Origin: an uncultured Candidatus Saccharibacteria bacterium
Lineage (GTDB): Bacteria > Patescibacteriota > Saccharimonadia > Saccharimonadales > Saccharimonadaceae
Reading direction: 5' to 3'
Assembly (NCBI GenBank): GCA_963704675.1
Contig: OY969928.1
Span: 631,539 to 695,538, forward strand
DNA length: 64,000 bases
The notes under the pieces were generated by a model, which was given only the letters and a program-made list of their open reading frames with translations, was not told the origin of the DNA and made no database searches. Of this stretch, positions 23,978 through 56,058 are shown in pieces (positions within the stretch are counted from its first letter, which is position 1; the number at the start of each line of letters is the position of its first letter). Made by a program: the position numbers and the translations under genes.

Positions 23978-24044
23978 GTTTTAGATAAAAATAAAAACGC
24001 CCTCAGGCGTTCTCGCAGATCAGCCTTCACTGTGTACTTTCCTA

Positions 24045-24091
24045 CCTGGAGCGTACGGGGGTGGCTGGCTGCCACTCACCGTACGTCCAGG
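24045..24091 (-). terminator. GC-rich hairpin downstream of the LAETG gene
   Basis: cctggagcgtacgg / ccgtacgtccagg form a 13-bp stem with one bulge. It lies 35 nt past the stop codon. Confidence 0.5.
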
Positions 24092-24125
24092 TTGGCGATG
24101 CGGGGTCAGGGCATCACCGGGTCAT

Positions 24126-25154
24126 TCAGTTGTTCTGCAACCTGCCACGCCGTCGGTAAATGAACAACAACACACCACCAGCGATCAGCAGCAGGGCAGC
24201 GATGCCCAGCGGCCAGCCAATGCTGGCACCGGTCTCAGCCAGCTCCTCACCACCGGGCGTGTTGTTGCCCACCGGCACGATGCCAGGTGTGGTTGTGCTG
24301 GTGGTCGGAACGGTGGTGTCCGTCGTCGTGGTCGGGACCGTAGTGGTCGTGGTCGGCGGCGAGCACTCCTCGACCACCACCGTAGTGGTGGTTCCATTGT
24401 GCTTGTCACTGACGGTGAGCTTGTACTCACCGGCCGCGAGACCCGAGAAGACGACCTCGCCGCTTGCGTTGCCGGCGATCTCGAGCTTCTTGGGCTCCAG
24501 CCCACCGAGCTTGACCCCGTAGGTGACCTTGTAGTGGTTCGGGTTGGTGATCGTGACGGTCACCTCACCGTCCTTGTCACCCTCGGCGACACAGGCCTTG
24601 ACCTCGGCGCTGACTTCAGGCTTCGCCGGCTTGCACTTCTTGGCATCGTCGAAGCTCCACGGCTTCGGCCCGCTGAAGTAGTGCCACAGCAGGTGCGGCT
24701 CGTCCGGGTCGCCCAGCTTGTCCAGCGTGCCGGGAACGTTCGGCTTGACGCCCTTCTCGACGTACCCGTCGGTTTGCCCGCACACCTTGCGCGGCGGTGC
24801 CGCCACGGTATACTGGCCGGGCTGCTTGATCTCGATGGACTCGCCCGTACCCACCAGGGTCTGGGGCCACATCTCGCCCAGCTTGTCATAGCGCCAGGTC
24901 GCACCGACCGCAATGTACTTGTCGCAGAGCGGCAGCTTGCCGCCGACCGTGACGACCCACGTGAAGGGGTCCTTGGCGACGTAGCTGACGACCTTCTTGA
25001 CGGCCTCGTGGCCTTCGACGCACCTGGTGGTGGTCTTGACCTCGGGACCGCCCGGAACCGGCAATTCGGGTTGCGCCATCGCCGGCGTCCCGGCGAACAC
25101 CATGGCAATCATGGCCGAAGCCACGCCTGCCACAGCAAGAGATCTCTTGATCAT
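24126..25154 (-). CDS. sortase-anchored surface protein (LAETG motif) with Thr-rich linker; high-GC islet
   Basis: Signal peptide MIKRSLAVAGVASAMIAMVFAGTPAMAQP. Thr-rich run PPTTTTTVPTTTTDTTVPTTSTTTPG. C-terminal LAETG followed by a hydrophobic helix and an RRRGR tail. Confidence 0.8.
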   Translation of the reverse strand: MIKRSLAVAGVASAMIAMVFAGTPAMAQPELPVPGGPEVKTTTRCVEGHEAVKKVVSYVAKDPFTWVVTVGGKLPLCDKYIAVGATWRYDKLGEMWPQTLVGTGESIEIKQPGQYTVAAPPRKVCGQTDGYVEKGVKPNVPGTLDKLGDPDEPHLLWHYFSGPKPWSFDDAKKCKPAKPEVSAEVKACVAEGDKDGEVTVTITNPNHYKVTYGVKLGGLEPKKLEIAGNASGEVVFSGLAAGEYKLTVSDKHNGTTTTVVVEECSPPTTTTTVPTTTTDTTVPTTSTTTPGIVPVGNNTPGGEELAETGASIGWPLGIAALLLIAGGVLLFIYRRRGRLQNN

Positions 25155-25306
25155 TTTTCCCTTTTCTGGAAAACTCGCCTTCGGAACAACTGAAACCGTA
25201 AAGACCCAGCACTACTGTGCTAGGCCTTCTTCATGTACCTCCTAAAGGTTTGTGTACAAGACAAAGATAATAATGCTAAAAAAATCATGAAAAGTAAAGA
25301 CTTTTA

Positions 25307-26050
25307 CTACTTTTTTATAGGAACAAGTAAATAAAAGCGTTCGTGGTTGCCTTTTGCACCTGCTATATCGCTGTCGGCCTTGGCGCTCACAAGCACATAT
25401 TGTTTCACCCATGATTCAAAATCTTTTAAAATCCGGCGGCGAACTGTATCATTTTTGATAATGCCTTTGTTTATCTGGTGCTTACCAGCTTCAAATTGCG
25501 GCTTAACCATAGCGACGATTTGCGTTGAAGGCTTTACAAGATAAGTGCAAAGATGCGGAATAATTTCACGCAAACTAATGAAACTTACATCAATAACAAT
25601 TATGTCCGGCAGAACCTCAAGTTCCTTGATATGCCGAATATCTGTCTTTTCATGTAAATCTACTCGAGAATCAGTGCGCAGGCTTGGATGAAGTTGGTTT
25701 GTGCCAACATCAACCGCAATCACTTTTTTTGCACCGTGTTGCAAAGCATAGTCAGTGAAACCTCCAGTCGAAGAGCCAACATCGAGTACCACTTCCCCCT
25801 GAAAACGTAGCCCGAGCACCTCGGCAACACTCGCTAGCTTAAGGCCGGCTCGGCTAACATATTGTGCATCTGTTTTCAAAGAAAGCTGTGCATTCTCATC
25901 CGCTAAGAAGCCGGGCTTTGTGATAATTTTGCCATTAACACTTACTTTTGCAAGCTTTATCCAGCTCTCTGCTTGCGAACGGGTTGGAACAATTCCTTTT
26001 TTTACCATTAATAGATCGATACGATACTTCACTCTTGACATTATACACAT
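25307..26050 (-). CDS. tlyA: TlyA-family rRNA 2'-O-methyltransferase (S4 + FtsJ domains)
   Basis: RIDLLMVKKGIVPTRSQAESWI (S4-like) and VLDVGSSTGGFTDYALQHGAKKV (SAM motif). The start may be Met4 at 26041. Confidence 0.8.
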   Translation of the reverse strand: MCIMSRVKYRIDLLMVKKGIVPTRSQAESWIKLAKVSVNGKIITKPGFLADENAQLSLKTDAQYVSRAGLKLASVAEVLGLRFQGEVVLDVGSSTGGFTDYALQHGAKKVIAVDVGTNQLHPSLRTDSRVDLHEKTDIRHIKELEVLPDIIVIDVSFISLREIIPHLCTYLVKPSTQIVAMVKPQFEAGKHQINKGIIKNDTVRRRILKDFESWVKQYVLVSAKADSDIAGAKGNHERFYLLVPIKK

Positions 26051-26098
26051 GATATTTTAGAGTCTCAATGAGTTTACCCGTTCGCAAGTAGGAGTGTC

Positions 26099-26578
26099 AT
26101 GATGCCAACAGCCAGGTACAGCAACTACGAGCTCATTATCGAGCTAGAGAACTGCAACATTGACCTGGACGTATTCCGAGCAACACCAGAAGATTTCCTT
26201 GCACAGCTACGAGAACGCCGACGAATTCCCGATGGGCTGCGAGTGCTCATCGCCAAGCTGTTCCAGCAGAGGGTGATCACAGGCTGCGTCATTACTTATG
26301 GCAAGACAATGACGCTCCGGCTATCGCCGATTTGCCCGTCTGGCCACGATTTGCTACTGGATGGGGCTCTTGAGAAGTTTAAGGAGGTATACACCAGCAT
26401 TACCAAACAGCCAATCACGGTAGGCTGGGAAAGCTCAAGTAAAAAACGTTTTCTTTCGCGCAGGTCGCGGCGTGACTGTAGTGGAATCCTGGGAGGCATC
26501 GTTCAGATTGTTGACCTGGCCGCTGATGCAGTTGTTGCCGCTGCTGCCCTCAAGGAACTATTCGGCGATTCAGAGTGA
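26099..26578 (+). CDS. orphan hypothetical protein, moderately GC-enriched islet
   Basis: 159-aa ORF with an AGGAG RBS. No motif was recognised. Confidence 0.45.
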   Translation: MMPTARYSNYELIIELENCNIDLDVFRATPEDFLAQLRERRRIPDGLRVLIAKLFQQRVITGCVITYGKTMTLRLSPICPSGHDLLLDGALEKFKEVYTSITKQPITVGWESSSKKRFLSRRSRRDCSGILGGIVQIVDLAADAVVAAAALKELFGDSE

Positions 26579-26583
26579 ACTCT

Positions 26584-26615
26584 TGCGAGGGGCGGTCAGC
26601 TGACCGCCCCTCGCA
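26584..26615 (+). terminator. perfect 16+16 palindrome after the orphan ORF
   Basis: tgcgaggggcggtcag|ctgaccgcccctcgca with no loop spacer and no U-tract. Confidence 0.6.
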
Positions 26616-26662
26616 GAGCCCTGTCAGAAAGTTAATATTTCTATTAATTATCATTATTTAAT

Positions 26663-28874: not shown

Positions 28875-29056
28875 GTCTACACTTAGTCTTGTGCTGAGAA
28901 TTTGTTAGCTATTTTCTCTATTCTTTATCCACTGGCCGAAATGGGTAGCGATTAATAATGCAGTGGATAACCCTGCTAGGTGTAGACACCTTGCAATCGC
29001 TACCCTCACGGATAACTAATAACACAACACACGATAGAGTATCGGTGTTTTTATTT
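28875..29056 (+). promoter_or_regulatory. structured leader: three nested/pseudoknotted perfect stems plus a weak hairpin with T-run, upstream of the tail-fibre-like operon
   Basis: Stem A is 28875-86/28976-87 (12 bp, one G-U). Stem B is 28925-34/28961-70 (10 bp). Stem C is 28943-53/28995-29005 (11 bp). These are followed by acacgat..atcggtgt and ttttattt. Confidence 0.4.
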
Positions 29057-29077
29057 GACGCAAAAAAATGGAGGAAT

Positions 29078-29704
29078 ATGTCAAGACTACCAATACCCGG
29101 CGCAGACTTTGGAGACTGGGGAGAAATATTAAATGACTTTTTAAAACGCGAGCATACATCAGACGGTGCTTTAAAGATACGTGCTGACGGAACATTAAGT
29201 GGTTTATATAAAAAACCATCAAGCGGCATACCCGAAAACGATCTTGATAGCATTATTCAAAACAAACTGAACACCACTCTGCCCGCATCTACAAGCAGCC
29301 TTGGGGGGATTCAACTATCTGGTGATCTTGCAGGAAGCGCCACTACACCTGTTGTGCCGGCACTTAATACTAAGGCAGATATTGTCGAAGCTGTGAATAT
29401 CATAACTACTAGTAATAGTACCTTGACACTCCCAGATGTAACAACCGCTACCGTTCACGACGTTACACTTACTACCGATCTTATCATTACGCTGCCGACC
29501 CCTAGTGCCGGTAAAAGCTTGACACTTATCGTACGCCAAGATAGCAGTGGAGGACATAGTATTACTTGGCCTCCGGCGGTGAAATGGCCAAGCGGCATCC
29601 CAATGGAATTAACACCTACCGCAAATGCTATTGATGTTATCACATTTCTAGGGTTAAGTTCATCAGCGTGGCTTGGTTTTCAATCAGGATACGATCTACG
29701 ATGA
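29078..29704 (+). CDS. phage tail-fibre/receptor-binding-like protein
   Basis: The start MSRLPIPGADFGDWGEILNDFLKREHTSDGALK follows a GGAGG RBS. In my memory the N-terminal D-x-WG-x-ILN-x-FL..H..DG motif resembles actinophage minor tail proteins. The track ORF start at 28958 is less likely. Confidence 0.5.
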   Translation: MSRLPIPGADFGDWGEILNDFLKREHTSDGALKIRADGTLSGLYKKPSSGIPENDLDSIIQNKLNTTLPASTSSLGGIQLSGDLAGSATTPVVPALNTKADIVEAVNIITTSNSTLTLPDVTTATVHDVTLTTDLIITLPTPSAGKSLTLIVRQDSSGGHSITWPPAVKWPSGIPMELTPTANAIDVITFLGLSSSAWLGFQSGYDLR

Positions 29705-30873
29705 AAGCTGCTGTACGCATGAAGCAGCCGAGTTCAGTGCAGCAAGACTTAGTGATCCGTCGTGTCACCAACGAGCTCGCAATCTTTGGCCAGTGGTTAA
29801 ACAGAAATAACGTTAGAGGAGTTATCTCTGAAATTGGATGGCCTAACAACGCTTATCCTCAACTTTGGAATAATGTCGCTAAAGCATGGTATAGAGAAGC
29901 AAATAAATGGCACCTGCCCGTCCTTGCCTTTACCGCACAAGGCCCTGGCACGAATGTAGCGCAACTCACTATGTACAGCAGGAGTAATGGATCTGTTAGC
30001 GGCGGGCAATCTATAGATAAAGCAAATCAGCAGGCAAAAGTGAGCGAAGCATTTCAAACTACACCAGAATACTGGAGAGGCATTGATATATTCGGCGGTG
30101 CTGCCAACGATGGTGGCGGAGATGGTAACCCCTCTATCATGAATAATGTGCAGCAAAACACCTGGTGGTATGAAACGCCCGGCACATATACCTATTTAGC
30201 GAGTAGAGGTTATAAGGTTGCTCGTATAGGATTTCGATGGGAACGACTCCAACCAACACTAGGAGCTGCTCTCGACACTACAGAGGTAAACCGACTGCAG
30301 AATACTATTTCAAATGCTCAAAACGCTGGCATGCAGGTAGTGCTCGATCTACATAACTATAGTCGCTACGTGACTCCTAGTGGAGTCACTATACTTGGCA
30401 CAGCTCAACTACCGATAAGCGCCTTCATTGACGTATGGAGCCGCATTGCCACCACTTTTCAATCAAATACGGGTGTACTTGCCTACTCATTAATGAACGA
30501 GCCACATGATATGCCTCGAACGCCTCTGGGAGAGCCCTCTGCTAAGCACTGGGAGGCAGCGGCCCAATCAGCAGTCAATACAATTCGCCAAGCTGGAGAT
30601 ACTCACGAAATTCATGTTTCAGTTTATGAATGGGGGCGTGCACAAAACACTCCTCTTCACCATGCCACTGCATGGATCGTAGATCCAGCTAGCAATATAC
30701 GCTACGAAGCCCATCATTATCTCTACTTGCATCACGCTACGGCCATTAATTACCCAGATAGCTTCCAAACAGAGCTGCAAGATGCAAGTGGTATCTGGAC
30801 ACAAGAGATGACTCCAGGAAAACAGTGGGCCAATTACGCCAATTTAACATGGAATCAACTAATAGGAGCTTAG
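29701..30873 (+). CDS. glycoside hydrolase family 5 (cellulase-like)
   Basis: Acid/base region VLAYSLMNEPHD (NEP) and nucleophile region VSVYEWG. There is an ATGA overlap with the upstream stop. Confidence 0.65.
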   Translation: MKAAVRMKQPSSVQQDLVIRRVTNELAIFGQWLNRNNVRGVISEIGWPNNAYPQLWNNVAKAWYREANKWHLPVLAFTAQGPGTNVAQLTMYSRSNGSVSGGQSIDKANQQAKVSEAFQTTPEYWRGIDIFGGAANDGGGDGNPSIMNNVQQNTWWYETPGTYTYLASRGYKVARIGFRWERLQPTLGAALDTTEVNRLQNTISNAQNAGMQVVLDLHNYSRYVTPSGVTILGTAQLPISAFIDVWSRIATTFQSNTGVLAYSLMNEPHDMPRTPLGEPSAKHWEAAAQSAVNTIRQAGDTHEIHVSVYEWGRAQNTPLHHATAWIVDPASNIRYEAHHYLYLHHATAINYPDSFQTELQDASGIWTQEMTPGKQWANYANLTWNQLIGA

Positions 30874-30877
30874 AAAT

Positions 30878-31522
30878 ATGGCAACCTTTACACCAAACCT
30901 CGAATTAAAACAACATAACCCCAACGATCCTATTGACCCCGTTGATGCCTTTGCAAGTAACTTCGGTAAGATATCTGGGCTATATCAAGACGGCAATTCA
31001 ATATCAAATGGCATTTCGACATGTGACCGACGATTTGCAGATGGAACTATTACCCCGATCTCGGGCGAAATATACTTTTCTTATTTTACCTCGCCTCGAG
31101 GTAGCTTGAGCGGCGGCATTGTTTCTAAAATCGAATTAAGAACTGGTTCCCAGATTGCCAGTGGAGTAACCCTTGCACGTATTGGGCTTTATACTGTCAA
31201 TTCCGGTGATCAAGCATTAGCTCTCGTTGCCAGTACCGCAAATGAAACCAGCGGCTGGACAACTACTTTCACTGGTGTTGTTAAAAATCTTTCTGCTACC
31301 TATACGCTACAAGTTGGCAAACGCTATGCTCTAGGGGTTCTATTTGTGGCAACAACACCACCCAGCTACGTCCGCTACAAATGTAGCACCGATTTCGCTC
31401 TCAATGCTGTTCCCCCTCGCTTATGCGGCAAATTAGCCAGTCAATCTGACCTGCCTACCAACATCGCAGATAATATACTTGCGACAACTAGCGGAGGAGG
31501 CTTTGTTAGCCTTTTGCCATAA
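30878..31522 (+). CDS. hypothetical protein with phage tail-fibre-like N-terminus
   Basis: MATFTPNLELKQHNPNDPIDPVDAFASNFGKI resembles the TPNLGL..P...D......N...ID motif seen at N-termini of tail-fibre-type proteins. This is from memory. Confidence 0.4.
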   Translation: MATFTPNLELKQHNPNDPIDPVDAFASNFGKISGLYQDGNSISNGISTCDRRFADGTITPISGEIYFSYFTSPRGSLSGGIVSKIELRTGSQIASGVTLARIGLYTVNSGDQALALVASTANETSGWTTTFTGVVKNLSATYTLQVGKRYALGVLFVATTPPSYVRYKCSTDFALNAVPPRLCGKLASQSDLPTNIADNILATTSGGGFVSLLP

Positions 31523-31712: not shown

Positions 31713-34355
31713 TTGACGTCCCAGCAAGCCCCTGAGTATAGCGGCAAGAAGCGCAAGCTTCTGTTCGCTGCCGTGGGAATAACTGTAATGTTGCTCAGCT
31801 TTGTCGAGCTTTACGTCATGATCAGCATTTTCGGCATGGAAGCGTGGCTAGCCTACGCTATTCAGACAGTGCTGAGCGTGGAGCTCAACTTCGCGGGCAA
31901 CTGGATTCTCACTTTCCGTGACCGGAGACGCGAGAACAGCATCTGGAAGTCTTTACTGCTGTTTCACGCGACGCGAGTGTTCACCATCCCGTTCAACCAG
32001 GTCCTCTTCACCCTCCAGGTGTCGTGGGTACCGGTGTGGGAGTGGACAATCACAGCACCGTGGCCCATCAATCTCCTCGGAGAAAGCGGTCCGATCCTCA
32101 TTGCGCAAGCGGTGTGTATCGTCGCTACGACTGTTCTCAATTACGTCGCCGGTGACAAGCTGGCGTTCGGAGGAAAGTGGGCAAAAAAAGACTCAGCGCC
32201 GACGACATCACCGTTGCCGGCGCCAGAGTTGCCTGACAACCTTCCTTTCGTCAGCATCGTCATACCTGTTAAGAGCTCAGTGCCAACAGATACCCTGGAG
32301 GCACTTTGTCAGCAAACCTACCCCGGAGGCAACTTCGAGGTCATTGTGGTTGGCGACCTGGGCAGTCCAAGCCTTGCATCCATCAGGGAGCTGGACGTTC
32401 CATTCACTCTACAGGTACTCGAAGTTCAGGTTCGTACGCCGCGGCGTGATTCAAACGCCAAACGCGGGCGTGGTCTGAAAAAGGCGATCGGTGACATATT
32501 GGTCGTCATTGACGGTGACGTACTCCCTCGAAAGGAGTGGCTCTCACGAGTCGTCTCGCATCTTACCGTTGGCGGCCACCAGGCAGTCGCCGGCCCGCTC
32601 AGCGGGCACGGTGACTCTTGGTGGAATCGATACATCGACCACAATCGCATAGCCAGCAAAACACCTCGCATGACGACCGCTTATGAGGTCAACGGGTCAA
32701 ATACGCATCGCCGTAAGTTGCCCGTAACGGCTAATTTCGCGTGCCGCCGTGAGGTCTTCGAAAAAGTTGGCGGTCCGGATACTCGCTTCACCAATTCGTA
32801 CGAGGATTATTCGTGGTTCGAAACAATTGTGCAAAATGGCATAACCATTTACTGTGACCCGACGCTGGAAACCCCACGTCATCACCGAAGTGGGCTGTGG
32901 TCACTTCTCGACGAGTACAAGCGTTCAGGCATGGGCTGTGCTGACTTCATCGTCGCCTTCCCTTCCTCGCGCTTCGCTCGGAAACGAATTGTCCAGATCG
33001 TTTGCACAGCCGGTATCAGTATCGGCACCTTGGTGTGTGCATGGCTTAACCCCCTGCTGCTCACCGCGTTCGGTCCGTTCCTGGTACTAATCATGCTAGC
33101 CAACTGGGTCAACACAAAACGCACAGCAAGTCTCGCCTACCCGTTCGTGACCCTACTGCTTGCGAGCAGATTCCTACAAGGAGTATTCTCGCGCTTCCTG
33201 CGACAAGGCTTCCGTCACCCCACGGATTCCTATGTTGTTGAGGAACGATCATCGTTCACTGCCGGAGAAGCAGGCTGGCCATCAGTGAGCGTCGTAGTGC
33301 CCGTCAAGGATCGCCCTGGAACCATCCGCTCATTGGTTAACTCCTTGCTCGCCCAAGAATACAAGGGCGACATAGAGATTATCCTCGTGGGCGATGTGGG
33401 TGATACCACCTGGAATCCCATTCGATCCCTGATCGAGAAAGGGAAGATACGAGCCATAGAGGCTGATGTCGAATCCGCTGGACGTGATGCAAACGCCAAG
33501 CGTAATGTTGGTCTCACGGCTGCTAAGGGCGAGGTACTGATTCTCACCGACAGCGACATGGTTCTACCAAGTCACTGGCTTGAGAAGGGTGTCACGCTCA
33601 TGCGTCGGTCTGGCCACAAGATCGTGGCGGGGTCGATGCGAAGCGTAGAGGCAGCCGTCGAGAGCTCTTCGAGTTTTTGGGGGATGTACACCGATCTCAA
33701 TCCATTCGGAAGTAAAACCCCACGGATGGATCCAGCGTACGTCATTACGCCGCATAACCTCGGAAGGGGGAAAGAAAAGCCACCAATTACCGCGAGTATG
33801 TTCTTCGCACGCGAAGTGCTAGAAGCAACTGGCGGTCTCGATGCAAACTTTACCTCTCCGTACGAGGATTACCCCTTCGCCGATCAGATTATCGACGCAG
33901 GCTACTCGATCCTCTGCACGGATGAGCTGTCCGCCTACCACTACCATCGCGACGGCCTAAAGTCTCTCACCAAAGAGTACCTTCAGGCTGGTATCGGCTG
34001 TGCGGATTACATCCGCACATATCGCACCTCCCGATTTGCTGCAAAGCGTCTCGGGCAAGCGTTCGCGATGACTCTGTTCTTCATGACTGGCATTACGGCA
34101 ATGTGGCTGCTGCCCTTGGCAACAACGGCGGCTAGCTTCATCGGTATCACAGCGCTGGCTGGACTCAGCTGGCAGAAAACGAAACGCCCCATCGCGGCAA
34201 TCTTTCCGATCATCACAACTTACCTCGGCACTGTCTTCTACGTAGGGATAGTGACGGGAGCTGTAAGACGGTTTTGGTCAACCCAACCCGATACCCACAT
34301 CGTTGGAATACGGGAGATAACCGCAACGTTGGCACTGGAGGAAGACCATGTCTAA
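31713..34355 (+). CDS. fusion protein: GtrA-like N-terminal domain plus two tandem (GT2 glycosyltransferase + TM bundle) modules
   Basis: 880 aa with a TTG start. GtrA-like ..VLSVELNFAGNWILTFRDRR. GT2 module 1 is FVSIVIPVKS..VIDGDVLP. GT2 module 2 is VSVVVPVKDR..LTDSDMVLP. Each module is followed by GSKTPRM..YEDY..GCADF/Y..SRFA.KR and TM helices. Confidence 0.7.
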   Translation: MTSQQAPEYSGKKRKLLFAAVGITVMLLSFVELYVMISIFGMEAWLAYAIQTVLSVELNFAGNWILTFRDRRRENSIWKSLLLFHATRVFTIPFNQVLFTLQVSWVPVWEWTITAPWPINLLGESGPILIAQAVCIVATTVLNYVAGDKLAFGGKWAKKDSAPTTSPLPAPELPDNLPFVSIVIPVKSSVPTDTLEALCQQTYPGGNFEVIVVGDLGSPSLASIRELDVPFTLQVLEVQVRTPRRDSNAKRGRGLKKAIGDILVVIDGDVLPRKEWLSRVVSHLTVGGHQAVAGPLSGHGDSWWNRYIDHNRIASKTPRMTTAYEVNGSNTHRRKLPVTANFACRREVFEKVGGPDTRFTNSYEDYSWFETIVQNGITIYCDPTLETPRHHRSGLWSLLDEYKRSGMGCADFIVAFPSSRFARKRIVQIVCTAGISIGTLVCAWLNPLLLTAFGPFLVLIMLANWVNTKRTASLAYPFVTLLLASRFLQGVFSRFLRQGFRHPTDSYVVEERSSFTAGEAGWPSVSVVVPVKDRPGTIRSLVNSLLAQEYKGDIEIILVGDVGDTTWNPIRSLIEKGKIRAIEADVESAGRDANAKRNVGLTAAKGEVLILTDSDMVLPSHWLEKGVTLMRRSGHKIVAGSMRSVEAAVESSSSFWGMYTDLNPFGSKTPRMDPAYVITPHNLGRGKEKPPITASMFFAREVLEATGGLDANFTSPYEDYPFADQIIDAGYSILCTDELSAYHYHRDGLKSLTKEYLQAGIGCADYIRTYRTSRFAAKRLGQAFAMTLFFMTGITAMWLLPLATTAASFIGITALAGLSWQKTKRPIAAIFPIITTYLGTVFYVGIVTGAVRRFWSTQPDTHIVGIREITATLALEEDHV

Positions 34356-35832
34356 TATCAGACACCGCCACGCAGCAACCGTGGTAGGCAGTAAGGCGTT
34401 CTTACTCATCGGAGCAGTCATTGTCGTGCTCGGCGCTGCGCTCCGCTTCATCAACCTGTCCACTTGGCCGGGGGTGGAGTGGGACGAGAACGTCTACCGA
34501 GTAGTCGGTGAGCACGTCGCCCAGGCCGGTGACATCACCGCCAAAACCGAATACCTGGCCGCCGCTGAGCCGTACCTCTATCACCCGCCGTTCCACTTCG
34601 TGGTACTGGGCGGATGGTTCGAGATCTTTGGTTCATCGCTCCTGGCAGCTCGGGCACTTGCCGTTGTGGCATCTCTTGTCATGATGGTGGTGCTCAGTTA
34701 CTTCCTACGCTGGATGATCGGCAACTGGGCACTCCTGGCCGTCGGTCTCATCACCGTCGACGTGTGGATGATCTTCTCGAACCGCGTCTCGTGGATCGAG
34801 AACATCATGATCCCCGTGGGGATCATTGGCCTGTGGCTGTACCGTCGGGGCAGCGAGAAACATTCTTCTCGACTGTTCATCGCGGCCGGGATCGTACTTG
34901 GTCTGGCCGTCGCCTACAAGCACATCGGGCTCATTTTCCCGCTGGCTGTGGGCATCTGTTGGCTGCTCATGCGCAGACTTCACAACCTGCACGTGAAACT
35001 GTTCGCTGCTTTCGCGGCAACAAGTGGCCTCTACGTGGCTGCAATGGCACTGATCTTCGGCAAGGTGTACTTCGAGCAATCCGGCATCCAGTTCTTCCGT
35101 AGCACTGGAAGTCGCGAGTCTCGGGGTGCGCTCAACCTGAGCAACGTCATCACGCCGCTCGTCGATCAGTATGCCGTCTTCGTTGCAACCATGGTACTCG
35201 CGCTGGCGGCCGTGGTCCTGCTCCTGGTGCGCACTGCTCGAATCATCCAGCAGCGTAGCCTGGTCAGCCTGCAGCAGCACACGCTACTGTATGCTTGGGC
35301 AATGGCAGCACTGCTGTTCTTCCTGGTCCTCCAACTCCGTTTTCCCCACTACTTCATGCTCATGCTCATCCCACTGTTCTGCTATCTCGTCGCCGAGATC
35401 AAGTGGTTCAGCGAGAAGAGGCGTGCCAACGGCTCCAACCCCGCAGAGATGCGCAGGGTGATCGCGATCTGCGCCGTACTGGCGCTCGCGTTGAATGTCA
35501 ACGCCTTCATCCAGCGCTTCGTTACTCAAACCAGTGACGATGCGTTGACGGCAACGGCGAACTGGATGTCAGCAAACGCGCCGGCAGACGCCAAGGTTAT
35601 CACCGAAGAATCTGTCGGCTCCACCATCGGACAGCCTTACTGCAAGATCTGGAAGGGTGACGGCTGCGTCGGCGCCGAGTACGTGATTGTCTACACTTCG
35701 CACACGCAGAAGATCCCGGATAACCCCGGTCTTCGCCGCCTGATCGCCTCCGCTGGGTCCCCCGTCTTCACGACGCGGGGCTACAAGGAGATGATTACCG
35801 TGTACAAGCTGCCCTCTCCTGTGAGCGGCTAA
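34348..35832 (+). CDS. polytopic GT-C fold glycosyltransferase (PMT_2 / GT39 / ArnT-like)
   Basis: 494 aa with at least 10 TM segments. The first-loop acidic motif is EWDENVY (DE motif). It has a GGAGGA RBS and an 8-nt overlap with the upstream gene. Confidence 0.55.
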   Translation: MSNIRHRHAATVVGSKAFLLIGAVIVVLGAALRFINLSTWPGVEWDENVYRVVGEHVAQAGDITAKTEYLAAAEPYLYHPPFHFVVLGGWFEIFGSSLLAARALAVVASLVMMVVLSYFLRWMIGNWALLAVGLITVDVWMIFSNRVSWIENIMIPVGIIGLWLYRRGSEKHSSRLFIAAGIVLGLAVAYKHIGLIFPLAVGICWLLMRRLHNLHVKLFAAFAATSGLYVAAMALIFGKVYFEQSGIQFFRSTGSRESRGALNLSNVITPLVDQYAVFVATMVLALAAVVLLLVRTARIIQQRSLVSLQQHTLLYAWAMAALLFFLVLQLRFPHYFMLMLIPLFCYLVAEIKWFSEKRRANGSNPAEMRRVIAICAVLALALNVNAFIQRFVTQTSDDALTATANWMSANAPADAKVITEESVGSTIGQPYCKIWKGDGCVGAEYVIVYTSHTQKIPDNPGLRRLIASAGSPVFTTRGYKEMITVYKLPSPVSG

Positions 35833-36000: not shown

Positions 36001-36774
36001 TTAGCTACTGGCGACCAGCGCACGCCTAGTAGCAAATCGCAACCGCAGCAATTGCCGCACGAATTTGAAGCCCGTGCGAATGTCGCTCTTTGTGTTACCG
36101 GCCGTTCGTTCACCGAACTGCATCGGTAGTTCCAGAATGCGCAGGCCGCGATGAGCACACAGCAGTTCGACCAAGATCTTGAATCCGTCAGACTTCAGAC
36201 GATCAATGTCAACAGCCGAACGACGAAATACGAAGTAACCGGTCATCGGATCGCTCACTTCGCCAAGCAGACGTGGGAACAATAACTTCGCCGCCAAGTT
36301 CGTGCCACGCGAAACAACGTGCCGCATGAACCCGTTCAACCCATCGGCACTGCCGCCACTGCGATAACGGCTCGTCGTGACTACGTCTACACACTCTGCT
36401 ATCTGGAATAGTAGCCTCGAGAGATAGGCGGGGTGTTGACCATCACCGTCAATGACACAAACGTATTCGTCAGTACTGCACATGCGAATACCGTGTACCA
36501 CCGCACCCGACAAGCCGTCGATGCGCTCCGCCCCCACCCGACGGAACCCCTCGACAACAAAACGCGACGTGCCAAACTCGGCAGCCGCGGTGGTAACAGC
36601 ATCTACCGTGGCAGTATTCTTGCTATCATCGATGACAAGCAGGCGAGTTACACCATCCAGCGGTGCCACCGCTTCTCTCAATAACTTCACCAGCAAGCTG
36701 ATGTTCTGGGCTTCATCGATTGTCGGCGCAATGATTGTACGTGTCGGAGCGTTGTGCTCGCGGACAGCAGACAT
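36001..36774 (-). CDS. polyprenol-phosphate glycosyltransferase (GT2; Ppm1/DPM1/GtrB-like)
   Basis: ..LLVIDDSKN..VCVIDGDGQHPP-like (DGDGQHPA)..SDPMTGYFVFRR..GFKILVELL..ERTAGNTK. The start at Met37 (36774) is preceded by GGAGG. Confidence 0.8.
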   Translation of the reverse strand: MSAVREHNAPTRTIIAPTIDEAQNISLLVKLLREAVAPLDGVTRLLVIDDSKNTATVDAVTTAAAEFGTSRFVVEGFRRVGAERIDGLSGAVVHGIRMCSTDEYVCVIDGDGQHPAYLSRLLFQIAECVDVVTTSRYRSGGSADGLNGFMRHVVSRGTNLAAKLLFPRLLGEVSDPMTGYFVFRRSAVDIDRLKSDGFKILVELLCAHRGLRILELPMQFGERTAGNTKSDIRTGFKFVRQLLRLRFATRRALVASS

Positions 36775-37056
36775 CAATACCTCCAAGAGAGCTATGTACT
36801 CCATGCAGCATCTTGACCGCTTTTGCGGATGTCGTCCTACATTATACATTAAACTAAATATTTTGTAAACTAATATATGCAAAAATTATTTCTAAAAGAC
36901 CAAACATATAACGTATTGATCAGCGCCGCGCAGAAAAAGGCCACCTCTATACTTACAGCCAGTATTACTCACAAGGGGCATGATTAAGCGCAACGACTAT
37001 TACGACAACGAGAGTCATATTTACGCCTCAGATGGCACTAACTGGTGTATCGCTGG

Positions 37057-43770: not shown

Positions 43771-44322
43771 ATGCGGGTTCGATTCTACGTCAGCATGGAC
43801 AAAACCGGCTTCGAGAACGACGAAAACGACCCAGTCTACAAGATCATCCAGCGGATTCGCAACGATTTTGCCGCAAGAGAGGCAAGCTCGCACTACAGCT
43901 CAGAGCCGGTTCGCATCCAGGGCGTCGGCTTCTTCCAGAACGAGGAAGGAACGTATGCCGAGTTCGAGCACTTCTTGTTCGGCCTTCCAACTGCCATTGT
44001 CGACGAGCTCTACTTGAGCGTTCGCCGTGTCGAAATCCATGAGGAGTTTCCGCTGCCAAGCAGTGGCTTCTCGAAAGCGACCTTCACGATGCCCCAGGGG
44101 GACTACGAACACAATGGCGCCGAGGCCATCGTCTACGAAGCTCCAACTGCGGGCGGCGTATCGCGTCAGATTCGCGTTCGGGTAGTCGCTGAGACTCTCG
44201 ACAAGGCTGTCGAACTCTTCAACCTCATTCGCGAGGGCGAGGGCGAGCCGGTTCGCCACTGGATTGATCAGCCGAAGAAGAACGAGCAGAACGACGCGGT
44301 CCCCAGCGAGCAGCCGACATGA
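43771..44322 (+). CDS. orphan hypothetical protein (high-GC islet)
   Basis: 183-aa ORF with an AAGGAG RBS. No motif was recognised. Confidence 0.5.
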   Translation: MRVRFYVSMDKTGFENDENDPVYKIIQRIRNDFAAREASSHYSSEPVRIQGVGFFQNEEGTYAEFEHFLFGLPTAIVDELYLSVRRVEIHEEFPLPSSGFSKATFTMPQGDYEHNGAEAIVYEAPTAGGVSRQIRVRVVAETLDKAVELFNLIREGEGEPVRHWIDQPKKNEQNDAVPSEQPT

Positions 44323-44522: not shown

Positions 44523-45608
44523 TTAGCGAGCAGGAAGGTTGCGCAGTTGCGCCGCCAGAGCTTCGCCTTGGAAACCTTCGGCAGACTTCTGTTCACCTTC
44601 GATACGAATCCACCACTTGAGGTGGTCGTGTGGCAGCGCAGGCAAGAGACTGCCTTCTGCGACAGCGGCGATCAGCGCTCGCTTCCTTGCCTTCGCTTCT
44701 TCCCTGTCCTTCAACTTGGGGTTAAAAGCACTAAGAGGAATGACCACGCAAGCAGCAGCTTGCCGCTGCTCACCCTCGCCCTTGTAAGCGTAGTTGACCT
44801 TCAACTTCGGGTCAGCTTCGTTCTTCGGTGCCACGAGGCCATCAGGATACGGGATCTCCAGGGGTGCCCAGTCAATCTCCTCGTCACTTTCGGAGACAGC
44901 CGCGAAGTCCTCAAGCTTGAGATGCAAGTCAACGTCGCAGAACTCAGCGAGAGTCGTCACCTTGGCGGCCTTGAGTTTTTCTCGGTAGAACTCTTCGAGC
45001 GAAGGAACCTCCACGTACTCACCCGCACCGCGAAGCACAAGCAGCTCCAATTGCTCCAGCACGTCACGGTTGTGCGAGTGCAGACTCCACCCGCCCAACC
45101 TTTCGGCCAGAAGCTCTTCCAGGATGAGCTCCAGCGGATCGCTTATAGTGATGCGTTCAAATTCGGTGCACACCGCCTGTACCGCTTTTTTGATTGAAGC
45201 AAGCACGGTGGCATGTCTACTATACGAGTTATGGAGCCTTTCGTATGCCTTTTGGATTAGCGCATTGAGGTCGGCAGTCGGGAGTATGTTGACAAGTTTG
45301 TCTCGCTCCATCGAAAGCCGCCGCAACTCCTCTCTTGCATGGAGATTAACTAGAGCAGATGAAGCGTGTTCTAGACTAAGAATTCGCTGCCTTGATCCGC
45401 CACGCGTGGTAACATAAATGTCTCCCCGTGTCGCCGCTTTTATCTCAGGCCAAGTCAACAGTCTACCTTCAGCCTCGGGCATTAGCTCGAGGTTCGCAAA
45501 CAGATAGCCCCGACTAGTAGCATCATACTTTACCACACCGCACATCACACCATCAACGATGATGTCTTCGTCGGCGGGCATGGTGATCTGGGGCTCGGTG
45601 AAGCTCAT
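44523..45608 (-). CDS. orphan hypothetical protein (high-GC islet)
   Basis: 361-aa ORF with an AAGAGG RBS. No motif was recognised. It is convergent with ORF 43771. Confidence 0.5.
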   Translation of the reverse strand: MSFTEPQITMPADEDIIVDGVMCGVVKYDATSRGYLFANLELMPEAEGRLLTWPEIKAATRGDIYVTTRGGSRQRILSLEHASSALVNLHAREELRRLSMERDKLVNILPTADLNALIQKAYERLHNSYSRHATVLASIKKAVQAVCTEFERITISDPLELILEELLAERLGGWSLHSHNRDVLEQLELLVLRGAGEYVEVPSLEEFYREKLKAAKVTTLAEFCDVDLHLKLEDFAAVSESDEEIDWAPLEIPYPDGLVAPKNEADPKLKVNYAYKGEGEQRQAAACVVIPLSAFNPKLKDREEAKARKRALIAAVAEGSLLPALPHDHLKWWIRIEGEQKSAEGFQGEALAAQLRNLPAR

Positions 45609-48159: not shown

Positions 48160-48414
48160 ATGGACTGGCGTTACAACAGTGCCTGCCGCGACGAGGACCC
48201 GGATCTGTTCTTTCCCGTGGGAACGAGCGGTCCGGCCATTTTGCAGACGGCGCAGGCCAAGTCGGTCTGCCACCGCTGCACCGTCGCGTCAGACTGCCTG
48301 ACCTGGGCGCTGCAGAGCGGCCAGGACAGCGGCGTCTGGGGCGGCATGAGTGAGGACGAGCGTCGCGCGCTCAAGCGGCGCAACGCGCGCGTTCGCACTC
48401 GCAGCAACGTCTGA
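48160..48414 (+). CDS. whiB: WhiB-like (Wbl) [4Fe-4S] transcription factor
   Basis: 84 aa. Cys pattern C9-x27-C37-x2-C40-x5-C46, GVWGG turn (SGVWGGMSEDER), basic tail RRNARVRTRSNV, and a GGAGG RBS. Confidence 0.85.
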   Translation: MDWRYNSACRDEDPDLFFPVGTSGPAILQTAQAKSVCHRCTVASDCLTWALQSGQDSGVWGGMSEDERRALKRRNARVRTRSNV

Positions 48415-51200: not shown

Positions 51201-51234
51201 TCTTTCTCCATAATGTCAGTATGGCATGTTTTGC

Positions 51235-51270: not shown

Positions 51271-51279
51271 GTATCTTAC

Positions 51280-52188
51280 CTACTCATCAGCGAAAAGCGC
51301 TTCGCCGCGCCGGTTGGTTAGCCACAAGGGGCGTGGTCCAACGCGAATCTTGCCCGGGCGCACGTTGTGAAGGCTGAACTCGGGATAATCCTGCCGTTCT
51401 TGGCCGTACAGGCCCGAGAGGCAGAGCCGGTTCTTACGAGCAAAACTCCGGCCGGGGTCGCGGCCACAGTTCGCCGCCATGTGCAGCTGCTGGGGGTCCC
51501 ACAGCGTCGTATCTTCGGGAATGATGACGGTGTGATTGGCCGGATTGAAGTGTTCCCGGCCGATACCTGTCGCCCCGAATGTGCCGATGACATCGCCGGC
51601 CCGCACTGGAATACCCAGCCGACGGAGCTCGTCTTGAGTTTTCATGACACCCGATGGATGCCAATCGAACTCATCCGTTTGAACGGCTGGCAAGTACGGA
51701 ATATCTTCCGCAACCGAGCCCAGGTGAATCAGCTGTGTGGTCAACTTACCGAAACCTGGCACATCAACGTGTTCGTGCTGGATTTCGACAAATAGCCCGG
51801 CACCGCCCCCATAGACAACATCATTCTCAATTCGAAGTGTCAAGAACTGGTAGCTGCACCAGGCGATGCCATCTGCCGGCGCCAGGATCGGTACCCCCAG
51901 CTCCAGACCTTCAAAGTCGAGCGCCTGGTGCGAGTTGTCGTCCCAGCCAATGAGCGGCATCTCGTCGGCAGCATCGAAGAAGCCATTCGTGACAGTCAGC
52001 TTGGAAGCGTCACACTTGCGGAATGGCTGCTTCAAGCATGGCGGTGGCACCACCCGCTCACGCGGTGTTGGGTCGAGTCGCGGACGATGATGCTGGTTTG
52101 ATGCGGCCATTGCCTCGTCAACGCTCACCGAGCCAACGGCTCCGACCGCCACAGCGCCCATGAGGACGCTCCTTCTAGAAGCACACAT
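51280..52188 (-). CDS. Tat-signal secreted M23/LytM-like metallopeptidase (high-GC islet)
   Basis: Twin-arginine N-terminus MCASRRSVLMGAVAVGA..AMAA. M23-like blocks are SHQALDF (HxxxD), GVPILAPADGIA, GLFVEIQH, TQLIHLGS and VRAGDVIGTFGATG. The terminal HxH is not obvious. Confidence 0.55.
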   Translation of the reverse strand: MCASRRSVLMGAVAVGAVGSVSVDEAMAASNQHHRPRLDPTPRERVVPPPCLKQPFRKCDASKLTVTNGFFDAADEMPLIGWDDNSHQALDFEGLELGVPILAPADGIAWCSYQFLTLRIENDVVYGGGAGLFVEIQHEHVDVPGFGKLTTQLIHLGSVAEDIPYLPAVQTDEFDWHPSGVMKTQDELRRLGIPVRAGDVIGTFGATGIGREHFNPANHTVIIPEDTTLWDPQQLHMAANCGRDPGRSFARKNRLCLSGLYGQERQDYPEFSLHNVRPGKIRVGPRPLWLTNRRGEALFADE

Positions 52189-54929: not shown

Positions 54930-55103
54930 AGTGCCTTTTCTCTTTTTTGTTTTGTAGTTAGATTTTATTTCACTGTAGCACAAGCGTTTTTAGCAAGTCA
55001 ATAAAATAGCACAACTTCTTTACAGATATGTGGTTTTTCGCTATAATTACTCTTCGAAGTCAATAAATATATAACTTTTTGTAAGCAAGGATAAAAACAC
55101 CAT

Positions 55104-55502
55104 ATGCCACTTATTCAATCAGCCATTAAACGCATGCGTCAAACAGCCAAGCGACGCGCTCGCAACGTCAGCACTAAGCGTGATGTTAAAAGCGCCGTTA
55201 AAGCTTTTTTTGCCAAGCCAAGTGCTGAACTATTAAGTGCAGCTCAGTCAGAGATCGACACCGCTGTCAAAAAGAATATTTTAAAGAAAAACACTGCCGC
55301 TCGCCGCAAAGCAGCGTTAGCTAAAACCGCAAAAGAAGCTGGCGTGAAACTTGTTGCTGGCGCCAAAAAAACCGCCGCAAAACCAGCAACTGAGAAAAAA
55401 GCTCCAGCCAAAGCCACTACTGCAAAAAAGCCAGCGGCAAAGACAACAGCCAAGGCCCCCACAAAGAAACCTGCCGCCAAGAAATCAATCGCTAAAAAAT
55501 AA
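55104..55502 (+). CDS. rpsT: 30S ribosomal protein S20 with Lys/Ala-rich C-terminal extension
   Basis: MPLIQSAIKRMRQTAKRRARNVSTKRDVKSAVK.., then about 45 aa of AKK/PAAK repeats. Confidence 0.85.
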   Translation: MPLIQSAIKRMRQTAKRRARNVSTKRDVKSAVKAFFAKPSAELLSAAQSEIDTAVKKNILKKNTAARRKAALAKTAKEAGVKLVAGAKKTAAKPATEKKAPAKATTAKKPAAKTTAKAPTKKPAAKKSIAKK

Positions 55503-55510
55503 GATACCTC

Positions 55511-55553
55511 AATCATTAAGAATAGCCTCGTGAAGAGGCTATTCTTAATGATT
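55511..55553 (+). terminator. 19-bp perfect hairpin terminator of rpsT
   Basis: aatcattaagaatagcctc-gtgaa-gaggctattcttaatgatt. Confidence 0.7.
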
Positions 55554-55579
55554 GACAGATTATCATATATAGTTATAAA
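55552..55579 (+). promoter_or_regulatory. candidate promoter of the islet gene 55612; its -35 overlaps the rpsT terminator arm
   Basis: TTGACA (55552-57), a 16-nt spacer, then TATAAA (55574-79). Confidence 0.45.
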
Positions 55580-55611
55580 ATTTACTTACCTCGAACAACC
55601 TGGAGGAACTG

Positions 55612-55968
55612 GTGTTTGACGCAATAACTCGGGCAATCCTGATGATTACGTTCGCAAGCAATATCTACTTCATCCTGACTTTTGTCCCGGCCTTGCAAAA
55701 AAGCAGAGAGGCCCTCAGAACTGAGGAGCTGGGGCCGCGCGGCCGCGACTTCTCTCTGAGCGATTATTGGAAGTCCTGCGGGTTACTTTCACTCCACCTT
55801 GGAAGTGGCTTGGCGATACTCACGCTCATTGTCGTTGGCGTACCTCTTCTATTCCCAAGAGTGGGAGTGTGGATCGCCATAGCGCTGGCGGCAATCGGCT
55901 TTGCCGGTGCAGTTTTCAGCCAGAGACGCTACGCCAAGATCGAACGTCGCCTTATGCCCTCACCCTAA
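55612..55968 (+). CDS. small polytopic membrane protein (high-GC islet)
   Basis: 118 aa with a GTG start after GGAGGA and about 3 TM helices. No motif was recognised. Confidence 0.45.
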   Translation: MFDAITRAILMITFASNIYFILTFVPALQKSREALRTEELGPRGRDFSLSDYWKSCGLLSLHLGSGLAILTLIVVGVPLLFPRVGVWIAIALAAIGFAGAVFSQRRYAKIERRLMPSP

Positions 55969-55998
55969 CTCCAGGACGAGCTTCTGCGTGCGACAGAA

Positions 55999-56038
55999 AA
56001 GACGGTTCAGCACTACTCATGAAGTGCTGAACCGTCTT
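55999..56038. terminator. 15-bp perfect hairpin between the convergent genes 55612 and holA
   Basis: aagacggttcagcac-tactcatgaa-gtgctgaaccgtctt. Confidence 0.6.
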
Positions 56039-56058
56039 CGCACACCCCTAAAGATTCG

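Follow-up and report, generated by a model that had tools for sequence, protein, structure and literature searches.

Gene transfer into the reduced genomes of Patescibacteria has been described as largely internal to the phylum, with ~83% of the transfers being intra-phylum and Actinomycetota acting as a rare donor (PMC12455944). In Saccharibacteria, all cultivated members of which grow on Actinobacteria (PMC10633639), gene flow from host to symbiont is also known, for example in the acquisition of arginine deiminase (PMC8764695), and ComEC-dependent natural transformation, a process in which type IV pili normally work with ComEC, has been shown (PMC10633639). The WhiB family was still described in 2026 as exclusive to Actinobacteria and actinophages (PMC13013590). 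Here we analyze a stretch of 64,000 nucleotides (the window) of contig OY969928.1, from an uncultured Candidatus Saccharibacteria bacterium, in which seven short islets rich in guanine and cytosine (GC), carrying ten genes, interrupt a backbone of lower GC content. The islets resemble the horizontally acquired islands of Patescibacteria in their deviant composition, their lineage-restricted genes, their setting in a reduced episymbiont genome and the fact that their relatives belong mostly to the same phylum. They differ from them in that the inserts comprise one to three genes scattered between core housekeeping genes, instead of large clusters, and, unlike other Patescibacteria transfers, one insert is a lineage-defining actinobacterial regulator. 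We regard it as likely that the islets are horizontal acquisitions of mixed age and mixed source, i.e. short foreign pieces lodged in the spacers between housekeeping genes. Such acquisitions are of a known kind, and the pattern found, mostly intra-phylum with one actinobacterial member, matches the published survey (PMC12455944); the surprising member is a conserved WhiB1 orthologue outside the Actinobacteria.

The window has a GC content of 46.1% and its backbone one of 42-46%. A two-state segmentation delimits high-GC blocks at 23998-25136 (64.7%), 31832-36768 (56.3%), 43704-45626 (55.5%), 48117-48507 (65.2%) and 51233-52198 (60.0%), with borders within tens of bases of those proposed in a first-pass annotation of this DNA, which had described seven GC-rich islets carrying actinobacterial-type genes. 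The weaker islets at 26090-26620 and 55600-56040 are missed by the segmentation, yet are clear outliers in the GC content of third codon positions (GC3). Against a backbone GC3 of 0.381 ± 0.048 (n=57 genes, the reference for all z-scores), the ten islet genes range from 0.57 to 0.86 (z 3.9-9.8), a shift of up to +0.47: 0.85 (z 9.7) for islet 1, 0.57 (3.9) for islet 2, 0.63, 0.76 and 0.58 (5.1, 7.8 and 4.1) for islet 3, 0.73 and 0.60 (7.3 and 4.6) for islet 4, 0.85-0.86 (about 9.8) for the whiB gene of islet 5, 0.66 (5.8) for islet 6 and 0.61 (4.8) for islet 7. The segmentation yields 6 blocks with 14.7% of the bases in the window versus 0.95 blocks per 64 kb and 1.3% in a control of 1.49 Mb from 80 related Saccharibacteria loci, an islet density about 10 times that of these relatives. 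Segmentation and GC3 thus confirm the seven islets, and the compositional observation is robust and far above chance. The islet boundaries are abrupt and match gene ends, and the promoters remain AT-rich. No RNA genes occur in the islets, and structured RNA was rejected as the cause of the short GC-rich blocks, the single tRNA of the window lying far from them. The islet genes, together with a low-GC block adjoining islet 3, are the following (coordinates in the window; strand; description, with promoter-like and terminator sites as predicted).

24126..25154, minus strand: islet 1, secreted surface protein of 342 amino acids (aa), in block 23998-25136 (64.7% GC)
26099..26578, plus strand: islet 2, orphan of 159 aa between tlyA and efp; promoter-like site at 26035-26063
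28958..31522, plus strand: low-GC co-inserted block (GC3 0.35-0.41) encoding a DUF5907 protein (phage tail-fibre-like repeat), a protein of the cellulase family GH5 (glycoside hydrolase family 5) and a protein of 214 aa
31713..34355, plus strand: islet 3a, protein of 880 aa with a GtrA-like flippase domain fused to two domains of glycosyltransferase family 2 (GT2); GC3 0.63
34348..35832, plus strand: islet 3b, PMT_2 (ArnT/Pmt-like) glycosyltransferase of the GT-C type, 494 aa; GC3 0.76; overlaps islet 3a by 8 nt
36001..36882, minus strand: islet 3c, GT2 protein of 293 aa, polyprenol-phosphate-sugar synthase type (Ppm1/GtrB/AglJ-like); GC3 0.58-0.60
43771..44322, plus strand: islet 4a, orphan of 183 aa; promoter-like site at 43617-43645, terminator hairpin at 44361-44386
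44523..45608, minus strand: islet 4b, orphan of 361 aa with an alpha/beta fold; promoter-like site at 45769-45741
48160..48414, plus strand: islet 5, WhiB1-type [4Fe-4S] transcription factor of 84 aa, in block 48117-48507
51280..52188, minus strand: islet 6, secreted protein of 302 aa with a twin-arginine-like N-terminus (SRRSVLMG); GC 60%
55612..55968, plus strand: islet 7, hydrophobic protein of 118 aa without relatives, between rpsT and holA; predicted promoter at 55552-55581 (TTGACA, 18 nt, TAAAAT)

The backbone is that of a Saccharibacterium, in agreement with its earlier description as belonging to the Candidate Phyla Radiation type: polynucleotide phosphorylase is 72-79% identical to that of Saccharibacteria species representatives, and ychF, tlyA, efp, ssb, rpsF, ftsK, RNase J, UDG, pnp, rpsO, truB, PIG-L, DHH, rpsT and holA are syntenic with Saccharibacteria. 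The full type IV pilus locus noted earlier (PilC, PilT, PilB, PilM, prepilin peptidase and pilins) is present in the window. The housekeeping pairs that were said to be interrupted are near neighbours in relatives, truB and PIG-L adjoining in 12 of 12, while distances of at most 300 bp separate ychF from tlyA in 5 of 7, tlyA from efp in 12 of 20 and rpsT from holA in 36 of 52. The UDG/pnp and pnp/rpsO junctions vary in relatives as well, as hot spots with a median gap of ~0.9 kb, but what they contain there has host-like GC. The 80 loci from related species contain no homologue of any of the ten islet proteins, and the syntenic comparison proposed at first pass shows, for up to 80 of these species, that the matching slots lack the islets. 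A congeneric metagenome-assembled genome (MAG; GCA_036378955.1, L087/L088; hereafter the congener) is collinear with the window, its backbone proteins being 81-96% identical and its synonymous sites near saturation (median dS ~1.7), and homologues of the proteins of islets 1, 2, 4b and 5 occupy the matching slots in it (37-91% protein identity). The homologue of islet 1 in a third Saccharibacteria assembly (L090) also lies between tlyA and ychF, and the islet 3 gene set of contig L086 also lies between rpsF and ftsK.

The clearest case of import is islet 5. Its product matches PF02467 with 90.6 bits (cut-off 23.6) over residues 3-71 and the Mycobacterium tuberculosis (Mtb) WhiB1 chain (PDB 5oay) with E = 7.5e-41 and 71% positional identity, compared with 5e-15 or weaker for WhiB2-type, WhiB3, WhiB4 and WhiB7 chains; by sequence it is assigned as a WhiB1 orthologue and not as another WhiB-like (Wbl) paralogue. 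The cluster-ligating C9, C37, C40 and C46 (Mtb WhiB1 numbering) are present in the proteins of both the window and the congener, which also share W3, F17, F18, W60 and the GVWGG turn with Mtb WhiB1. With its 84 residues, cysteines, aromatic patch, GVWGG and basic C-terminal tail the protein is thus like WhiB1/WblE (PF02467; Mtb Rv3219, PDB 5OAY and 6ONO). It is unlike actinobacterial whiB1 in its location between pnp and rpsO and in its AT-rich sigma-70-type promoter, being placed outside the neighbourhood of diacylglycerol kinase (DAGK), whiB1, pdtaS and rshA/sigH. The predicted promoter (48083-48111: TTGACA, 17 nt, TATTAT) is accompanied by a GGAGG Shine-Dalgarno sequence and a terminator with a 16-bp stem (48472-48507).

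The best database matches of this protein are 89-93% identical, and all the named ones belong to Pseudonocardiales, one being annotated as Actinophytocola. At the DNA level the coding sequence is 83-86% identical to Pseudonocardiales whiB1, the similarity ending at the gene ends, and its GC3 falls inside the donor range of 0.77-0.90. Readable contexts of the best matches show the order DAGK, whiB1, pdtaS kinase and anti-sigma/sigma on contigs of 65-70% GC. The 80 closest metagenome loci are all high-GC throughout (median 0.67) and contain no Saccharibacteria genes, which implies that a WhiB copy borne by Saccharibacteria is rare, and we found no paper reporting a Wbl protein in Patescibacteria. 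Actinophage WhiBs reach about 46% identity at most, so that a phage donor was rejected and the donor is taken to be a chromosome. Sequence comparison hence places the origin of islet 5 in a Pseudonocardiales chromosome, Actinophytocola-like, and for this gene the earlier reading of host-gene capture was right.

In a tree of the 120 best matches the WhiB proteins of the window and the congener are sisters. The congener gene occupies the same pnp/rpsO slot, its product is 91% identical, and both proteins have Y5 and T30, which are missing from the Actinophytocola-like group; the flanks of the two genes share the -35 box, a leader element, the GGAGG Shine-Dalgarno sequence and part of the terminator hairpin. 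The sister position, the two residues and the common regulatory flanks together point to a single insertion in a common ancestor. The ratio dN/dS between the two copies is 0.054/0.67 (about 0.08), i.e. purifying selection, which argues that the gene is functional. In the scenario that we propose, whiB1 would have been copied from the Actinophytocola-like chromosome into an ancestor shared by two or more species, with the pnp/rpsO spacer as the site of insertion, and would then have been kept by purifying selection behind a native AT-rich promoter of the sigma-70 type. Independent gain of WhiB and of islet 1 in the two genomes, considered as GC3 stays high in both, was rejected on the basis of the shared derived residues, the regulatory flanks and the co-divergence with the backbone.

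Islet 1 represents an older acquisition. Its protein is composed of a signal peptide, two Ig/FN3-like beta-sandwich domains, a Thr/Pro-rich stalk, an LAETG motif, a membrane helix and a basic tail, the sorting signal (motif, hydrophobic segment and positive tail) reading LAETGASIGWPLGIAALLLIAGGVLLFIYRRRGR, and the gene ends at an intrinsic terminator (24014-23993). Two anchor models score above their cut-offs, NF058582 with 39.3 bits versus 27 and TIGR01167 with 16.8 versus 15.9. In the AlphaFold2 (AF2) model, residues 50-260 have a predicted local distance difference test (pLDDT) score of more than 90, and the model matches tandem beta-sandwich structures. The signal peptide, the ectodomains, the Thr/Pro stalk and an LAxTG motif conserved across the family are shared with LAxTG substrates of class E sortases (NF058582, NF041528). 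In contrast to actinobacterial LAxTG substrates, its ectodomain belongs to a family whose matches include no named actinobacterial protein, and the three family members with readable context are all from Saccharibacteria and occupy one conserved slot. The window proteins that were scanned include none with a sortase domain.

The homologue in the tlyA/ychF slot of the congener is 48% identical, carries LADTG and has a GC3 of 0.82, and that of L090 is 37-38% identical, carries LASTG and has a GC3 of 0.67; in more distant Saccharibacteria the slot is empty of this gene. At conserved amino acids, the composition-corrected third-position similarity of the three species pairs is 0.39, 0.19 and 0.23, compared with 0.40-0.46, 0.23-0.30 and 0.28-0.35 for the genes flanking islet 1. 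The third-position signal follows that of the flanking genes and thereby argues for vertical descent since before the three species split, accompanied by fast protein evolution (dN = 0.44). Islet 1 would accordingly have entered the tlyA/ychF spacer before that split and descended vertically since, as a fast-evolving protein with actinobacterial-like codons. A tblastn search against plasmids gave no match. Its codon usage, for which Pseudonocardiales is the best model, is compatible with an old actinobacterial origin, so that the actinobacterial label fits this islet weakly, through anchor motif and codons, and capture from a host is possible for it.

L090 also offers a side observation: at L090:6532-7984, downstream of ychF, two ADP-ribosyltransferase-like genes (weak ART-PolyVal and ADPrib_exo_Tox matches) are found where the window has a 433-aa orphan. 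This position may be variable, and the two genes could form a toxin module.

Islet 3 shows a third kind of history. Three-component systems for extracytoplasmic glycosylation are represented by GtrA/GtrB/GtrC of enterobacterial phages, CsbB/GtcA/YfhO of Firmicutes and Ppm1/Pmt of Actinobacteria, and we take the layout of islet 3 to be of this type. A GtrA-type domain, a GT2 and a GT-C enzyme are each found above the Pfam cut-off: islet 3a matches GtrA_DPMS_TM (PF04138) with 53.3 bits and Glycos_transf_2 with 105.5 bits in two stretches, 3b matches PF13231 with 39.7 bits (cut-off 26.1) and 3c matches PF00535 with 47.9 bits, its polyprenol-phosphate class being indicated by sub-threshold NCBIfam matches only (AglJ, dolichyl-phosphate hexose transferase, ArnC). 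The true start of 3c is probably near 36774, downstream of a promoter-like site at 36869-36841. The islet differs from the known systems in the fusion of the GtrA domain to two tandem GT2 domains (880 aa), and its closest relatives are Saccharibacteria and not Actinomycetota, which makes the earlier label of Ppm1/PMT-type glycosylation as an Actinomycetota hallmark too narrow.

These relatives reside on two contigs of Saccharibacteria/Patescibacteria type. L086, a related Saccharibacterium (FtsK C-terminus 87% identical), has the same seven-gene set in a rearranged order, with identities of 49-65% for 3a, 55% for 3b and 50% for 3c. L085, with a backbone of ~50% GC, carries the GtrA-GT2 and PMT_2 pair at an unrelated locus, in a sharp block with GC3 0.79-0.88 (61% identity for 3a, 58% for 3b); in both contigs the PMT_2 gene directly follows the GtrA-GT2 gene. 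The cassette is missing from the rpsF/ftsK slot of the congener and of 36 other relatives, where the gap is at most 2.3 kb in these 36 as compared with 8.9 kb here. Nearest relatives in L086 and L085 together with a slot that is empty in the congener and 36 others argue that the cassette moves among Saccharibacteria; the three genes would stem from a pool circulating within the group, being GC-rich in each recipient examined. The adjoining block at 28958-31522 has backbone-type codon usage and is missing from the congener. Its GH5 and 214-aa proteins are found in 0 of the 80 relatives and its 248-aa protein in 2 of the 80, and all three of its genes lie beside the cassette in L086 (L086:4817-7265) with 50-70% identity. 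This low-GC block travels with the cassette, and the rpsF/ftsK insert therefore consists of two compositionally different halves.

The remaining islets carry lineage-restricted orphans, for which we consider a donor with a GC3 of ~0.65, such as higher-GC Saccharibacteria, or an older, partly ameliorated arrival. The islet 2 protein has no Pfam or NCBIfam match and, compared with the fetched loci only, has a homologue in the same slot and on the same relative strand of the congener (54% identity, GC3 0.53) and none in L090. Islet 4a, without a Pfam match, has a best homologue of 48% identity annotated as coming from a Saccharimonadales MAG, and is missing from the congener, where the gap between 4b and UDG is 88 bp. 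The best relative of 4b (41%) is again annotated from a Saccharimonadales MAG, and its homologue beside UDG in the matching slot of the congener is 37-41% identical with a GC3 of 0.59. A fold search with its AF2 model (pLDDT 82) gave no significant PDB match, the best being the C-terminal region of HrpA (9gft_B, E = 0.048). Two distant relatives of ~1100 aa (P0196, P0213) carry a 4b-like region at their C-terminus, and 4b may represent a stand-alone version of an accessory domain of helicases. Islet 7 shows the worst fit of the islet genes to the backbone codon usage and has no homologue but itself among the 1.84 billion representatives searched.

Islet 6 begins with MCASRRSVLMGAVAVGAVGSVSVDEAMAA, which, read directly from the sequence, resembles the twin-arginine translocation (Tat) motif (S/T-R-R-x-F-L-K); the window contains no tat genes. 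In the alignment of its family (23 sequences), H87, D91 (HxxxD), H155 and H236 are invariant. With its HxxxD motif and two further His spaced as in the metal site, this putatively secreted protein has a signature like that of the zinc peptidoglycan peptidases of the M23/LytM group. It differs from them in the lack of a Peptidase_M23 Pfam match and in the first His of the HxH motif, which is a Gln (QLHM), so that it could be a catalytically altered or a regulatory LytM-like domain. No Pfam, PHROG or PDB sequence match was obtained, and the best homologues are 40-45% identical. The one relative with readable context lies in the order lepA-gmk-hrcA-grpE-dnaK-X-dnaJ, which is non-actinobacterial, and its GC3 exceeds that of its neighbours. 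The islet is missing from the congener, where a 140-aa open reading frame (ORF) fills the slot.

As for the reach of these searches, six orphan proteins joined as one word-indexed query gave no match; this negative carries little weight, as the pre-filter limits scoring to the 8000 candidates with most words in common, and an exhaustive HMMER search with five of the six found small families. Look-ups of the exact WhiB, islet 1 and islet 4b sequences returned no record. Islet proteins, or variants 99-100% identical to them, are found in a public protein collection, all on one contig of 1,264,584 bp. Scans of viral contigs with islets 1, 4b and 6 revealed no relative, and WhiB is the sole islet protein matched in PHROGs.

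Codon usage was compared with models of the backbone, of Pseudonocardiales and of higher-GC Saccharibacteria (GC3 ~0.65). All of the 7 control genes fit the backbone model, and every islet gene does better on a foreign one: islet 1, WhiB and PMT_2 are Pseudonocardiales-like, and the other seven of the ten are closest to higher-GC Saccharibacteria. Most islet genes stand directly behind near-consensus, AT-rich promoters of the sigma-70 type and ahead of hairpin terminators, all predicted, so that foreign coding sequence appears to be held within native-looking expression signals.

Regarding the route of entry, a search of the junctions for motifs, target duplications and inverted or flanking repeats gave only chance-level 8-11-mers. 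The only recombinase of the window (XerC/D-like, low-GC, 4338-5243) and the tRNA (3578-3654) lie at least ~19 kb from the nearest islet, and the islets do not have the features of classical mobile genomic islands. From the lack of integrase, tRNA target or flanking repeat we infer illegitimate recombination, and, since Saccharibacteria are transformable via ComEC, uptake of free DNA would be the most economical route. The pieces, each of one gene or a small operon, would thus have been taken up by the competence/type IV pilus machinery and inserted into intergenic spacers of conserved housekeeping genes. The pilus-dependent uptake suggested at first pass is in this sense plausible, given the demonstrated competence (PMC10633639) and the absence of a mobile-element signature at the junctions. 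The functions gained may comprise envelope decoration, adhesion, wall remodelling and redox- or nitric oxide (NO)-responsive control of transcription.

We now weigh other explanations of the islets. An assembly or binning chimera, with actinobacterial reads mis-joined into a Saccharibacteria MAG, comes to mind at first sight of the abrupt GC changes and the actinobacterial-looking WhiB. It is extremely improbable: each islet is flanked on both sides by the expected syntenic neighbours on one contig of 1.26 Mb, WhiB is separated from all actinobacterial sequences found by 7% or more in protein and 13% or more in DNA, and its promoter and hairpin flanks are conserved in both genomes. The 37-91% identity of the four islets shared with the congener reflects divergence and not read duplication, islet 1 recurs in a third assembly, and the presence of divergent copies at matching slots of independent assemblies rules out errors of assembly or binning. 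The window represents part of a real Saccharimonadales chromosome of ~1.26 Mb. The first-pass annotation itself read the islets as repeated, piecemeal captures of host or actinophage genes that together form a host-mimicking set. The actinobacterial origin of WhiB, the LAxTG anchor of islet 1, the Pseudonocardiales-like codons of these two and of PMT_2 and the growth of all cultivated Saccharibacteria on Actinobacteria (PMC10633639) speak for this. As an account of all seven islets, acquired recently and independently, it is nevertheless quite unlikely. By nearest relatives, islets 1, 3, 4a and 4b belong with Saccharibacteria, the best match of islet 6 is distant and islet 7 has none; seven of the ten genes prefer the Saccharibacteria-type codon model over the actinobacterial one; islets 1, 2, 4b and WhiB are older than the split from the congener, and islet 1 older than that of three species. 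A phage source, in turn, is contradicted by the low identity of phage WhiBs, by viral contigs without close relatives of islets 1, 4b and 6 and by the PHROG matches, confined to WhiB. Capture from a host thus holds for WhiB, is possible for islet 1 and is not supported for the rest, and the host-mimicking set is speculation.

It is also unlikely that the islets are native, fast-evolving genes whose GC3 is held high locally, for example by GC-biased gene conversion at hot spots of recombination or by selection on the mRNA, although several observations are in line with it. In three species, the GC3 of islet 1 has stayed at 0.67-0.85 even though synonymous turnover came close to saturation, islets 2 and 4b have similar GC3 in the window and the congener despite a dS of ~2, single high-GC3 ORFs without relatives occur in other Saccharibacteria, one of them in the pnp/rpsO slot, and the junctions are variable hot spots across the phylum. 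Against it, WhiB is demonstrably imported, with GC3 within the donor range, the abrupt boundaries coincide with gene ends while promoters are AT-rich, the cassette is GC-rich at two unrelated loci of different genomes, the GC3 shifts are large and most relatives are without the islet genes. We therefore favour acquisitions of mixed age and source; the comparisons establish the foreignness of the islets, their positions, their ages relative to speciation, and the donor clade and purifying selection of WhiB.

Several points weigh against this preferred explanation. Of the seven islets, only islet 5 has an identified donor, and for islets 1 and 6 no close source, actinobacterial or other, exists among the 1.84 billion representatives. 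The taxonomy of contigs L085, L086 and L089 was derived from gene content and flanking-gene similarity, without a marker phylogeny, and the islet density is that of a 64-kb window and not of the genome. In addition, islet 1 and WhiB have a GC3 of 0.75-0.86 in the window and the congener despite the near-saturated backbone dS, whereas values of ~0.65-0.73 are expected under a crude two-state model of amelioration, in agreement with L090 but with neither of these two genomes. Something may be slowing the amelioration of these genes, whose GC3 has persisted through long vertical descent.

Some additional observations concern composition and gene turnover in this region. The sixth segmented block (53039-53606, 58% GC), absent from the first-pass annotation, corresponds to the C-terminal part of a DHH-family gene (53016-54983), a tail rich in Pro and Ala. 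As GC3 is normal there (0.35, z -0.6), the high GC content is ascribed to amino-acid composition and not to foreign DNA. A possible eighth mini-islet is found at 27292-27588 (minus strand), a helical ORF of 98 aa with an AAGGAGG Shine-Dalgarno sequence and a GC3 of 0.54 (z 3.2), located between efp and rpsR (27643-27843, 98.5% identical to the congener), which are 10 bp apart in the congener; it has no Pfam match and no homologue in the fetched loci. A further outlier in GC3, the ORF at 3427-3717, was dismissed as spurious in view of its overlap with tRNA-Arg(CCT) (3578-3654) on the other strand; the gene of the XerC/D-type tyrosine recombinase, which has no relation to the islets, lies 0.7 kb away. 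In other Saccharibacteria, with backbones of ~48% GC, single domain-less ORFs without relatives and with a GC3 of 0.85-0.92 occur at L058:12211-12735, L058:17110-17553, L058:20161-20631 and L004:7608-8189, one of them in the pnp/rpsO slot, as WhiB is here; small high-GC inserts of this type may be general among Saccharibacteria. Turnover at these junctions extends to low-GC lineage-specific genes. Between whiB and pnp, the congener encodes two additional low-GC ORFs of 150 and 139 aa (L088:6617-7533 versus window 47942-48159), and between RNase J and ftsK it carries a Zn_peptidase gene (L088:14140-15036) in place of the 274-aa orphan of the window (39846-40670), to which it is unrelated.

A bolder idea on the role of the captured WhiB1 is that it is a mimic aimed at the host and not a regulator of the organism's own genes. 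The protein has remained about 91-93% identical to the WhiB1 of Pseudonocardiales, and its aromatic patch, with which it would dock on sigma-A, is unaltered. All Wbl proteins dock on a His-Pro pair in region 4 of sigma (H516-P517 of Mtb SigA). In two related Saccharibacteria, the RpoD-type primary sigma factor (L033:9-830 and L045:~201-317) ends ...KALAKLRKHKDVKKLHEYLK and has K-H at these positions, i.e. KLRKHKD where Mtb SigA has KLRHPSR. The window contains no sigma gene, the rpoD of this genome being located outside it, as are its genes for Fe-S assembly. If its own sigma were also without the His-Pro pair, WhiB could only dock on the sigma-A of the host. Such a role, which we judge very unlikely, would imply delivery into the actinobacterial host and the rewiring of an essential redox/NO-responsive regulon. 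In a milder version, the donor clade, Actinophytocola-like Pseudonocardiales, may name the natural host of this uncultured soil genus of Saccharimonadales. An Actinophytocola MAG with one of the closest WhiB1 genes (L081, GCA_036378875.1, DASUVO...) has accessions near-adjacent to those of the congener (GCA_036378955.1, DASUVM...), which suggests that both stem from one study, and perhaps from one sample, and hints weakly at a co-occurrence of the donor lineage with the recipient.

Concerning the biology of the group, a high GC content alone is insufficient to assign a host origin to genes of Saccharibacteria, most inserts described here being old or circulating within Saccharibacteria. If our interpretation is correct, a WhiB1 that is fixed, conserved and, to judge from its predicted promoter, apparently expressed in a Patescibacterium breaks the rule that the family is a signature of Actinobacteria and their phages, and represents a concrete and datable capture of a host-lineage regulator by an episymbiont. 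The donor clade would then predict the natural host of the uncultured Saccharimonadales genus and could guide its co-cultivation.

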